Shown piece by piece: positions 3,420-5,950 of a stretch of DNA of 42,624 nt. Made by a program: the position numbers and the translations under genes. The DNA comes from an uncultured Phycisphaerales bacterium (lineage in GTDB: Bacteria > Planctomycetota > Phycisphaerae > WQYP01). Where the stretch lies: contig CAIMWO010000093.1 in the NCBI GenBank assembly GCA_903845195.1, positions 1-42,624 of the forward strand. Direction: 5' to 3'. Position 1 is the stretch's first letter; each line of letters opens with the position of its first letter. Under the pieces are notes generated by a model. The model searched no databases. It was not told where the DNA came from and saw only the letters and a program-made list of their open reading frames with translations.

Positions 3420-4694
3420 TCACTCCCCAATCCGCCTCAAGAACTCCTTCTCATCAATCACCTCCACCCCCAGCTTCTTCGCCTTCTCCAGCTTGCTCCC
3501 CGCCTCTTCGCCCGCCAGCACAAACGACGTCTGCTTGCTCACCGATTCTGTCGCTTTCCCTCCCAGCTCCTCAATTCTCTGCTTGATCTCCGTGCGCGAG
3601 AACTTCGCCAGCGTCCCCGTCACCACGATCGTCTTGCCCGCCAGCGGCCCAATGGGGAGAGCGTTGAACGGTGTTGGTGGCCGCTCTAGATCGGAATGGG
3701 TAACGGTTACAGGTGGCACACCAATTTGGTTCTGCGCGCGAAGCATTTCAAGAAACCTTGCTTCATCAATAATCTTGATCTTCGAGCCGTCGGCAGATAG
3801 CTCTTTTGCTTTTTCCAATTTGCGTGTGGCGTCTCCCCTGTCTTCTGACCGTGCCAAGACATTTTCGCCAACAACGAGGTAGTCGGTTTTTCCCGATACG
3901 TAGTTGTTTGCCTGACCATCTTGTTGTGTTACCTGCTGCACTGCCTCTGCCCTCGTCAGGTGTCCAAATTCGCCGGTAAAAGTAAAGTGCAGACCAGAAA
4001 AGCGGTGGTCTGGAGGGGCGGCTTCGACCAAGTCGATCACACAGGAACCGTTCTGTTCATCCAGAACGTCGGAGTCATCATCTTGCCCGGGAATAATCTG
4101 GGTATGTCCGTTGCCTTCGAGCCCGTTGATAGTCGAATGAGTCGCAATCGCACACGAGTCGGGATACCTGCGAAAGAACGAAGTGAGGTTTTCAATCCCG
4201 ATAAGGCCACCGAGCCGAATAGCAATTTCCGCACAGGCAATGGCATCAGCGCCGGCATCATGGTGCCTTAGTTGAAGACCAAAAAGGGAAGCAAGAGTTC
4301 CCAAACGGTGATTCGGCAAGCCAGGGAGGGCGTATCTGGCGAGTTCCACCGTGCATATCCAATCGCATACAGGTTGGGGAATCACGTGGAATTCGAGGCA
4401 GGCGTGGAGGACTCGCATATCAAACGCCGCGTTGTGTGCGATGATCGGAAGTCCCGTGAGTCGTCCTGAGAGGCTTGGCCATATCTGGCCAAAGTTTGGA
4501 CTTTGAGCAACGTCCGCTGGCTTGATGCGGTGAATCGAAATATTTCGCTGATTGAACGCCATTGTCGGCGGACGAATGAGATCAGTGTAGACGGCGTCGA
4601 TCGCACCATTCTTGACGATGGCGATTCCAACCGCACAGGCGCTGCTTGCATCCGAATTGGCTGTCTCAAAATCAATCGCGGCGAAATCTCGCAT
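3420..4694 (-). CDS. DEDDh-type 3'-5' exonuclease (DnaQ/epsilon-like) fused to two C-terminal BRCT domains.
   Basis: Exo motifs are AIDFETAN (Exo I), [13 protein letters not shown] (Exo II) and HHDAGADA (Exo III-epsilon). Two BRCT-like modules follow ([15 protein letters not shown]... and [21 protein letters not shown]...[14 protein letters not shown]). A GGAG RBS lies 9 nt upstream. The gene sits 40 nt downstream of the ligA stop, in the same orientation. Confidence 0.8.
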
Positions 4695-5950
4695 TCAATT
4701 CTCCAAAATCTCAGGTGCTGGGCGTGCTTTCTCGCTATTGCTCTCCAATTCTTTTCAAGAACTCTTTCTCGTCAATTACCTCGATCCCAAGCTCTTTTGC
4801 TTTGTCCAGCTTAGTGCCCGCATTTTCACCTGCAAGTAGAAAACTCGTATTCTTGCTTACGGAGCTGCCGACCTTGCCGCCAAGTTCTGGAATCTTGTGC
4901 TCAATTTGATGGCGGTCAAAATGCTCCAATGTGCCAGTTACAACGATTGTCTTTCCCGCAAGCGGCATGGTTCCTGAGCGATGTGGTCGGTCCTCAGTCG
5001 TCTTGATTCCAAGCGCAATGAGGTCATCCAGCATCCTTTTGCCAGCGCTGGAGTGAAGGAACGAATAAAGCATGCGGGCGGCCACGCCTTTCTTACGAAC
5101 TCCGGCGATGCGTTCCCAAAGAGACTTCTGGTTAGGGTGCGACAATGGAGTGTGCTTGATTTGTTTTTCGAGTTGTGGCTCAATTTCCTCCAGATCGAAA
5201 ATCTGCCCTAACGTCAGCTCGCCGGAGATGGGGTATCGCCGTCTAATTCCCTCCACTTCAGTAAGGACGCCACTTCCCATTCCGGGTGCTTCCAGAATCT
5301 CCCGGAAAGATGCTTGGCGAAGTTTGGCGAGTGTGCAAAAATGCGTCGCTAGCAATTGCGCTGTCTGATGGCCAATATCCGAAATGCCCAAACCCGCAAG
5401 AAGTCTGGCGAATCCACGGCCCTTTGATTCGGCGATAGCGCCGATTATGTTTCTTGCCCGGGTATGCGGCGGCTTCTTTCCGATCGTCACGAGAATGACC
5501 TTGGGAGGGTCCTGAGCTATAGTGCGATCCCGTTCATGCGGTGACGATTCATTTCCTGTGGCAAAGAGCGAATCTGATATCTGGGTATGCGTTGCCTTGG
5601 CAGACTCGGGCTTCTTACGAGACTTAACCGGGTTTACGTGTTCGCTGACAACCAGATCCTTAATTCCTTCGACAGTTAGACGATAGATGTCGGGAATGGA
5701 CTTGATCAGGCCGGCTTTGACTACTGCCCGAATCACGGCATCTCCCAGTTCATCAATATTCATCTGGTTTCGTCCGGCAAAGAACAGGACGTGTTTTTCA
5801 AGTTGAGCCGGGCAATCTGGATTGCGGCAGCGTGTGAAACCTCCCTCGTCTTCGATCATCTTTGACTTGCACACAGGGCATTCCTTAGGTCGTTCGATCT
5901 TCGTGGCATGTATTGGTCGCTTCTCCTTCACCACGCCGACTACGTACGGA
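3660..5950. other. Low-GC mosaic tract (~45-53% GC) spanning the 3' ~45% of ligA and the 5' ~80% of the exonuclease-BRCT gene. Flanks are ~60-68% GC.
   Basis: Manual GC counts on 60-nt blocks: 3721-3900 gives 45-52%, 4801-4860 gives 43%, 5521-5580 gives 50%. By contrast 3481-3660 gives 60-70% and 6061-6180 gives 62-63%. Confidence 0.7.

Follow-up and report, generated by a model that had tools for sequence, protein, structure and literature searches.

How does the gene of an essential replication enzyme come to change its base composition in the middle of a domain, and the gene next to it to change back within its own open reading frame (ORF)? The question is raised by ligA and the exonuclease gene that follows it in the genome of an uncultured Phycisphaerales bacterium (Planctomycetota; Phycisphaerae; WQYP01). 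The DNA analyzed, referred to below as the window, is a stretch of 42,624 nt of contig CAIMWO010000093.1 from assembly GCA_903845195.1. Between positions 3651 and 6027, over 2.4 kb, the window lacks the strand skew of the host. We consider it very likely that this tract is DNA of another lineage, which entered by recombination and replaced the resident 3' part of ligA. Comparison loci or contigs are designated by L-numbers and homologous proteins by P-numbers.

Base composition of the tract and its junctions

The strand asymmetry of the host DNA is close to saturation. In host genes on either strand, 61-92% of the four-fold degenerate sites are C and 0-18% are G as read on the + strand of the window, with C at 70-92% in all of them but the major facilitator superfamily (MFS) gene. 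Outside the tract, the GC skew of the + strand is -0.3 to -0.6 over 30 kb; inside the tract it is about 0. At four-fold sites the skew is -0.7 to -1.0 in the host vs. +0.09 to +0.18 in the tract, where G makes up.29-.33 and C.22-.24. Since genes of both strands share one polarity, the asymmetry is tied to the DNA strand and not to transcription, and a transcription-linked skew was rejected on this ground. The loss of the extreme G/C strand skew turned out to be the discriminating signal. The accompanying fall in GC content, which in 300-nt windows goes from 0.56-0.70 in both flanks to 0.46-0.55 over 3600-5850, is secondary.

The ligA ORF (4735..7215, - strand) can be extended upstream as far as an ATG at 7215, which gives 826 amino acids (aa); public gene calls give 792 aa. 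In its codons 1-400 (of 826) the frequency of G at third positions (G3) is 0.48-0.80 (0.62-0.80 from codon 51) and that of C (C3) is about 0.1, and in codons 430-826 each base occurs there at about 0.25. The exonuclease gene lacks skew over codons 1-325, and its G3 returns to ~0.7 in the final ~75 codons. The junctions were determined as maximum-likelihood changepoints of G3, with the 2-log-likelihood (2-lnL) range as support and 2000 codon permutations as the null. The ligA changepoint falls at codon 397 when counted in the 826-codon ORF and at codon 363 when counted in the 792-aa gene (window 6027; support codons 391-399), and a shoulder of intermediate G3 extends from it to ~5900. The exonuclease changepoint falls at codon 349 (window 3650; support 348-350). 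The lnL gains are 67.9 and 37.5-38.5, against maxima of 12.1 and 10.2 in the 2000 shuffles, respectively. Among 20 further genes, only two ORFs gave a comparable intragenic changepoint, both at what is probably the edge of an annotation or of an island.

Both junctions are located inside intact ORFs, the left one in the OB fold of ligA and the right one at the start of the second BRCT of the exonuclease, in the most conserved motif of the LigA BRCT. A scan of the 40-bp spacer between the two genes revealed no terminator-like site on the coding strand, and the exonuclease gene may be co-transcribed with ligA. Within the 2.4-kb tract, no integrase and no identical att core were found, the sole repeat being a 58-bp segment that the BRCT ends have in common at 81% identity. 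Site-specific integration was rejected for want of an integrase or att core.

An earlier reading of the locus from its letters alone (the sequence-only reading) had described a low-GC tract at ~3660-5950 that cuts into both ORFs and leaves ligA intact. The 300-nt windows reproduce the low-GC tract, and the frames are open across both junctions. The GC and GC3 profiles that it called for show G3 to be sharply non-uniform, with the smaller of the two gains, 37.5, still far above the highest shuffle value, 12.1. The breakpoint assigned to ~3650, between the two BRCTs of the exonuclease, was recovered exactly. The one assigned to ~5950 does lie in mid-ligA, and its position shifts slightly further into the gene, to ~5900-6045 (6027).

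The halves of LigA and the BRCTs of the exonuclease

The longer gene is predicted to encode the NAD+-dependent DNA ligase LigA, with the Ia, adenylation, OB-fold, HhH and BRCT domains in one chain (PF22745; PF01653, E=1e-91; PF03120; PF12826; PF00533) and the KxDG motif as CEPKIDG. The segment of the zinc finger, in the part that appears to be imported, has the four Cys and scores 20.6 bits with PF03119, below the cutoff of 25.8. The HhH region of the 3' part has clade-type insertions. At four-fold sites the 5' part is 90% C on the + strand; in the 3' part the values are G.29, C.24, A.21, and T.26.

The window LigA was aligned with 58 homologues (59 sequences in all), and the affinity of its segments was assessed by identity statistics, as distinct from full likelihood phylogenies. 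Over the full length the best matches are ~60% identical. The mean identity to the relatives falls from 73.1% for the N-half to 46.4% for the C-half, and for the BRCT it is 65.0%. In pairs of relatives with an N-half identity of 73-76%, the C-half is 61 ± 8% and the BRCT 73.8 ± 6.4% identical. If C-half identity is regressed on N-half identity, the window LigA has a mean residual of -12.4 points, rank 1 of 59, with a standard deviation of 3.6 among the relatives. Only 1% of the relative pairs with an N-half identity of 70-80% have C-halves as dissimilar as this.

The exonuclease domain (PF00929, E=6e-14; phrog_192, E=3e-41) carries the motifs DFET, HNAAFD, and HHDAGAD. As read from the translation, it has the DEDD acidic residues and the H-x4-D motif of its family. 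Residues 1-320 match the family of DEDDh exonucleases with a BRCT over the full length, the nearest members being 42-45% identical; one of these is prophage-encoded in the isolate Poriferisphaera corsica (L088), and homologues of ~31% identity are found in temperate phages of Streptococcus, Staphylococcus, and Listeria. The family architecture is ~300-325 aa with one C-terminal BRCT, and the lengths of the 120 homologues collected centre on 305-325 aa. The window protein departs from it with 424 aa and two BRCTs, and the extra LigA-type BRCT is shared only by P0227 (n=120). Four-fold sites are unskewed in codons 1-348 and 87% C on the + strand in the terminal BRCT.

This terminal BRCT and the BRCT of the window LigA share 72-73% of their residues and 66.7% of their nucleotides, the identity at the three codon positions being 0.79, 0.85, and 0.36. 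Compared with the LigA BRCTs of the 58 relatives, the terminal BRCT has a mean identity of 74.3% (maximum 86.8%), the value expected of an orthologous ligase BRCT, vs. 65.0% for the ligase's own domain. It is the closer of the two in 56 of the 58 comparisons. When the alignment columns are bootstrapped, the terminal BRCT leads by 9.3 points (95% interval, 3.7-15.4), and a fraction of 0.0006 of the replicates is at or below zero. The two copies differ at 21 sites; the clade consensus sides with the exonuclease copy at 13 of these and with the ligase copy at two. The terminal BRCT is 80% identical to the LigA BRCTs of L006 and L013 (tblastn), its best match in PDB is the BRCT of Escherichia coli LigA (E=4.5e-20), and it also matches the NAD-ligase families of PHROG.

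The sequence-only reading had taken the 3' part of ligA, its BRCT included, to be foreign, and both the unskewed four-fold sites and the first-ranking C-half residual agree with it. Its estimate that the two BRCTs are ~75% identical in protein and diverged in DNA is close to the values obtained. The host-like third positions of the terminal BRCT and the crossover in BRCT-coding homology were also confirmed, the latter by a junction that falls on the opening residues of the conserved motif. The derivation of the last BRCT from the resident ligA stands in that this domain is LigA-type, clade-typical, and made of host DNA; as to its source, the resident ligA is slightly favoured over an older exonuclease end.

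Origin of the tract

Because the same sequence recurs in at least four other metagenome assemblies, a Logan contig included, the tract is not an assembly chimera. Both junctions do lie within conserved motifs, where assemblers can mis-join, so that two co-occurring populations might be imagined to have been joined at the ligA and BRCT motifs; the chance of this is practically negligible. The exact 424-aa exonuclease protein is present on 8 contigs of ENA, JGI, and Logan assemblies from several samples, under the naming schemes k141_, scaffold, JGI, and Logan. Window 421-12698 has 100% base identity with L001, L002, and L003, contigs of three other assemblies, and the Logan contig L004 (3.1 kb) crosses both junctions without a break. 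The other assemblies are invariant across the ligA-exonuclease locus, all 19 of 19 mismatches being at 351-420. A native tract, the composition of which arose in place by patchy strand-asymmetric mutation or by separate codon selection, appears very improbable to us. Skew equal in magnitude is indeed present in the nearest genomes (L006, L007, L008, L010, L011, L013, L071, L072), but patchily and sometimes changing sign within 20 kb, as in the loci of L007, L010, and L013, and this would suit such an origin. However, ligA is skewed end to end in the skewed relatives (L006, L008, L010, L011, L026, L071, L072), so nothing intrinsic to its 3' half resists skew; codon-usage selection on that half was rejected for this reason. 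The unskewed state spans two genes and the spacer, with junctions sharp to a few codons. The skewed terminal BRCT keeps the clade consensus and the unskewed copy diverges; under local hypermutation the reverse would be expected. Acquired DNA known from the window is likewise unskewed: since the integrase element at tRNA-Ser and the strain-variable glycosylation island (glycosyltransferase/methyltransferase) left of the window in L001 (12100-19279) both lack skew, the unskewed state can be taken here as a mark of acquisition. Most other Planctomycetota loci have no such skew, and the literature searched contained no report of extreme GC skew in Phycisphaerae or Planctomycetes. In Alphaproteobacteria, core genes are concentrated in GC-skew peaks (PMC9836097), a pattern that would be in keeping with skew marking long-resident DNA.

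The neighbourhood of the exonuclease in other lineages bears on what was exchanged. In 7 of the 8 other contexts of the exonuclease examined, ligA is the immediate neighbour (L086, L087, L089, L090/L091, L092/L093, L096, L097/L098), and L029 has a weak exonuclease match just after ligA. In L087 (3-1846), a 291-bp direct repeat (84.9%) of the ligA linker and BRCT ends the exonuclease gene, giving the order exonuclease-BRCT1-linker-BRCT2 as in the window. The mirror image is seen in L086 (94-4905), where the Ia domain of LigA is fused to the N-terminus of the exonuclease and a full ligA lies downstream (230-bp repeat, 81.3%). L090 (724-4313) retains a 60-aa remnant of the LigA BRCT past an inverted exonuclease gene. 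In L064 (2643-3986), the gene after ligA has an N-domain that is not an exonuclease, then BRCT1, a linker, and a LigA-type BRCT2. Where the exonuclease has a single BRCT, this domain is 80% (L097, 2-2035) or 59% (L096, 2727-5924) identical to the BRCT of the neighbouring LigA. Among 80 genome loci, an exonuclease-like or BRCT1-BRCT2-like gene adjoins ligA only in L029 and L064, and the loci nearest by LigA similarity (L006-L013, L026) have no exonuclease gene beside ligA.

These architectures give some room to an allelic replacement, in which the resident already had ligA followed by exonuclease-BRCT1-BRCT2 and the segment of a diverged relative replaced the part from the OB fold to the start of BRCT2. 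This would still be an import, with the terminal BRCT as the old end of the resident exonuclease and not a former ligA BRCT. The same order after ligA exists in L087 with an exonuclease and in L064 with another N-domain, the exonuclease BRCT is 80-90% like that of the neighbouring LigA in L087 and L097, and, since such BRCTs stay LigA-like, a resident BRCT2 could look clade-typical too. Both crossovers in conserved motifs are also what ordinary homologous exchange predicts. On the other side stands the scarcity of such genes next to ligA in the nearest genomes and in the 80 loci, though its weight is small as these genomes are distant and non-syntenic. On balance we regard an allelic replacement as rather unlikely. 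Gene conversion within the genome, from a second ligA-exonuclease copy on a plasmid, prophage, or other mobile element, is less probable again and would in our view be quite surprising. The prophage and phage homologues mentioned above are compatible with it, as are the matches to phage NAD-ligase and exonuclease families of PHROG and the resemblance in composition between the tract and the integrated element of the window. Nevertheless, the LigA C-half has the clade-specific long architecture and is only 33-37% identical to phage ligases vs. 45-53% to LigAs of Phycisphaerae, and no second copy is present in the window or in the recovered contigs.

Import by recombination, as the sequence-only reading had proposed for the 3' half of ligA together with the exonuclease gene, thus gains support from the loss of skew, the sharp changepoints, the outlying C-half, and the clade-typical terminal BRCT. 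As the probable donor we see a different member of the Phycisphaerae clade with long LigAs, unskewed between the strands and of ~52% GC. Its locus, which like L087 would have had ligA followed by exonuclease-BRCT1-linker-BRCT2, would have recombined with the resident chromosome, the left crossover occurring in the conserved OB-fold motif of ligA and the right one at the conserved start of the resident sequence coding for a LigA-type BRCT. The exchange may have been homologous at both ends, or anchored by homology at one end with a short-homology junction at the other. It would have brought in the 3' portion of the donor ligA, the 40-bp spacer, and the DEDDh exonuclease gene with its own BRCT and linker, and left a chimeric yet complete LigA and an exonuclease ending in a second BRCT from resident DNA. 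If import is granted, we lean slightly towards a resident that had only ligA and a donor that had both genes, so that the resident ligA BRCT would have been displaced downstream and captured as BRCT2 of the exonuclease. The donor probably had a second BRCT already, since the 30 codons of linker that precede the junction belong to the donor DNA and keep the frame open. No amelioration is seen at the four-fold sites of the tract, which suggests that it is young relative to the process that builds up the skew.

Several observations weigh against this explanation. A donor search over 5.8 billion proteins found none, the best match of the exonuclease part being 44-45% identical, and protein searches of phage records gave at most 37% identity and no near-donor. 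For the LigA C-half, the best matches reach 49-53% identity, with nothing above 49% over the full length; of their contexts, L094 contains a ligA with a frameshift, and L095, a fragment at a contig end, contains no exonuclease. The outlier test is not unique to the window, as the LigAs P0031 and P0024 also have large negative C-half residuals. No genome of a close relative free of the tract is available, the nearest LigA N-halves being ~75-80% identical, and gene order around ligA is almost unshared with the nearest genomes; only hyp425 adjoins ligA elsewhere as well, in L013. In the synteny check suggested by the sequence-only reading, the nearest genomes have no exonuclease at ligA, but because these relatives are distant (~75% in the LigA N-half) and non-syntenic, a presence-absence test is weak. 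Recombination between sequences so divergent at third positions should be rare. Proteins with BRCT1, linker, and LigA-type BRCT2 exist elsewhere (L064, L087), so the resident could already have had such a gene. Finally, shared G-rich codon pressure on amino-acid usage could inflate in part the similarity of the terminal BRCT to the relatives' domains.

A wider reading places the window locus in a series of such events. Tentatively, and with more doubt than confidence, the ligA end and the exonuclease-BRCT gene may form a recurrently exchanged module with ligA as the recombination anchor, in which each arrival replaces the ligA end and the displaced LigA BRCT (or, in the mirrored case, the Ia domain) is captured by the exonuclease. 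The BRCTs of the family would then have been repeatedly drawn from the neighbouring ligase or homogenised with it. The adjacency to ligA in 7 of 8 contexts, the ligA-end repeats or remnants in L087, L086, L090, and L064, and the BRCT likeness in L097 and L096 are compatible with this reading. If it is true, a 3'-5' exonuclease may be physically coupled to LigA.

The wider window and comparison with known systems

Table 1. Features of the window, from the tract and its flanks to the remaining genes.
Feature	Position	Strand	Remarks
ligA 5' part, resident DNA	6028..7113	-	Codons 1-362 of the 792-aa gene; Ia, adenylation (KIDG), first half of OB fold
Left junction, putative recombination site	5900..6045	-	OB-fold coding motif SRASLHNF|DEIERKDIR; maximum-likelihood changepoint
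ligA 3' part, very probably acquired DNA	4735..6027	-	Codons 363-792; rest of OB fold, putative four-Cys zinc finger, HhH, BRCT, stop
Spacer from ligA stop to exonuclease start	4695..4734	-	40 bp; GGAG 7 nt before ATG
Exonuclease gene, whole	3420..4694	-	424 aa
Exonuclease codons 1-348, very probably acquired DNA	3651..4694	-	DEDDh (RNase T/DnaQ-like) domain, first BRCT, 30-codon linker
Right junction, putative recombination site	3648..3653	-	ALPIG|, then first residues of conserved LigA BRCT motif; maximum-likelihood changepoint
Exonuclease codons 349-424 and stop, resident DNA	3420..3650	-	LigA-type BRCT fused in frame to the gene of likely foreign origin
Pfam-supported host genes		-	NDH2, aldose epimerase, 2-hydroxyacid dehydrogenase, beta-CASP, M19 peptidase, MFS
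Pfam-supported host genes		+	GT2, FKBP, metallophosphoesterase, AP_endonuc_2, GH35
Integrated mobile element at tRNA-Ser(TGA)	31741-42624		Unskewed; GC 0.45-0.64 (mostly 0.50-0.60); continues past window end
tRNA-Ser	31741-31828		
Tyrosine integrase	31969..33333	-	
Excisionase-like ORFs	33330..33752 and 36401..36733		
DnaD-like replication initiator	34505..36178		
CcbP-like calcium-binding protein	37558..38055		
DksA/TraR-like protein	41986..42510		Weak match, below Pfam cutoffs

The skew vanishes from ~31.3 kb to the end of the window, where the gene content is that of an integrated mobile element, the remainder of which consists of many ORFans. No attR copy of the tRNA-Ser end was found within the window, and a look-up of the CcbP-like protein returned nothing on record. 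Beside the tRNA-Ser, at the 5' end (31350-31710) of the MFS gene (30277..31710, - strand), codon 121 is a changepoint at which G3 rises from 0.28 to 0.56 (lnL gain 14.3; 0 of 2000 shuffles as high, maximum 11.9). Either a further mosaic edge or a wrongly placed start codon could account for this. A change at codon 106 of the 'Beta_helix' ORF (28732..30270) probably reflects a wrong TTG start. At the other end of the window, in a GT10-family gene (270..1658, - strand), positions 346-420 have 19 mismatches within 70 bp, and left of 346 the alignment ends. This looks like a recombination breakpoint at the strain-variable glycosyltransferase/methyltransferase island.

Upstream of ligA there are two copies (7303-7355 and 7522-7575, 93% identical) of a G/C-balanced palindromic element of ~46 nt, GGGTGCCATGCCCAGTGGGGC-AGGG-GCCCCGCTGGGCATGGCACCC. 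Both are inside a C-rich ORF of 425 aa (7271..8548), on which gene callers differ: it is called in L001, and ORFs of the opposite strand are called in L002. Long shadow ORFs are common in the window because the C-rich strand is poor in stop codons. Within the skewed zone, skew is weak or absent at 15450-15900, 22950-23850, and 24750-28000; at four-fold sites it is +0.27 in orf15663, +0.11 in a methyltransferase (27162..27974), and about -0.35 in an aldo-keto reductase and orf25388. These patches may be older or additional imports. In the relatives, ligA of L007 (9429-11693) looks like a patchwork, C3-rich at both ends with a mixed middle, and L013 (8500-13500) has an unskewed 5-kb block with ligA between flanks of + and - skew. 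The gene may be a frequent site of recombination in this clade.

If the tract was imported, an essential replication enzyme has been rebuilt in mid-domain from foreign DNA in a natural population, and the junctions are known to within a few codons. The right junction would have created a new domain fusion and show directly how repair proteins with several BRCTs can arise. As ~85-90% of the four-fold sites of the host are one base on one strand, recent imports stand out, and the lineage could serve as a natural system for the study of recombination tract lengths and gene-transfer rates without cultivation. Two side results are perhaps weightier than the mosaic itself: the near-saturated host asymmetry and the putative recurrent module in which ligA is paired with an exonuclease gene that has captured ligase ends.

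The mosaic pbp and penA alleles of Streptococcus and Neisseria are products of interspecies homologous recombination. As in those alleles, the window has divergent blocks in an intact essential gene, crossovers within the ORF, and a probably chimeric, presumably functional product. Unlike them, its block adds a whole gene, one junction fuses domains in frame, the synonymous divergence is larger, and no donor was identified. In the integration of phage 21 and e14 into icd, the element carries a replacement 3' end of the gene. The window likewise has a gene 3' end apparently replaced by a foreign copy, with the gene intact and a remnant of the old end kept, whereas its tract has no integrase or identical att core, only BRCT ends that share 58 bp at 81%. 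In homology-facilitated illegitimate recombination, as defined in PMC3240628 and discussed in PMC5361080, the conserved ligA could anchor DNA that carries a non-homologous exonuclease gene. The second junction is, however, not random but in BRCT-coding homology, and the exchange was maybe homologous on both sides. At the rhs, cdiA, and type VI secretion effector loci, C-terminal displacement leaves 'orphan' 3' ends, as described in PMC5361080 (and by Jackson et al. 2009, cited therein). There, too, a new 3' end and a downstream gene enter and the old end is kept downstream, a layout that recurs in L087, L090, and (mirrored) L086. In contrast to those loci, there are no toxin or immunity genes, only ligA and the DEDDh exonuclease, the target is a housekeeping ligase, and the putatively displaced end is fused in frame, so that the locus resembles displacement in its workings without belonging to those systems. 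At the window locus the layout fits, yet the retained BRCT could be an older exonuclease end. In general, the class of mechanism is known, from mosaic genes, homology-facilitated illegitimate recombination (PMC3240628), and C-terminal displacement (PMC5361080).

The exonuclease, for its part, matches over residues 1-320 a family (PF00929 + PF00533; phrog_192) that is often annotated as 'DNA polymerase III epsilon-like' or 'PolC-type'. Couplings of a nuclease or a scaffold to a ligase offer a possible rationale for a ligase-type BRCT on such a protein. The BRCT of Mycobacterium tuberculosis LigA partners with XthA (PMC7530888), and XRCC1 pairs with DNA ligase III through a BRCT-BRCT contact (PMC3177190, PMC7797052). 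By analogy only, the ligase-type BRCT might tether the exonuclease to ligase sites or to LigA itself, and the tandem BRCTs may have a function of this kind. If functional, the recurrent pairing of ligA with exonuclease-BRCT genes points to a bacterial ligase-exonuclease partnership not yet described.

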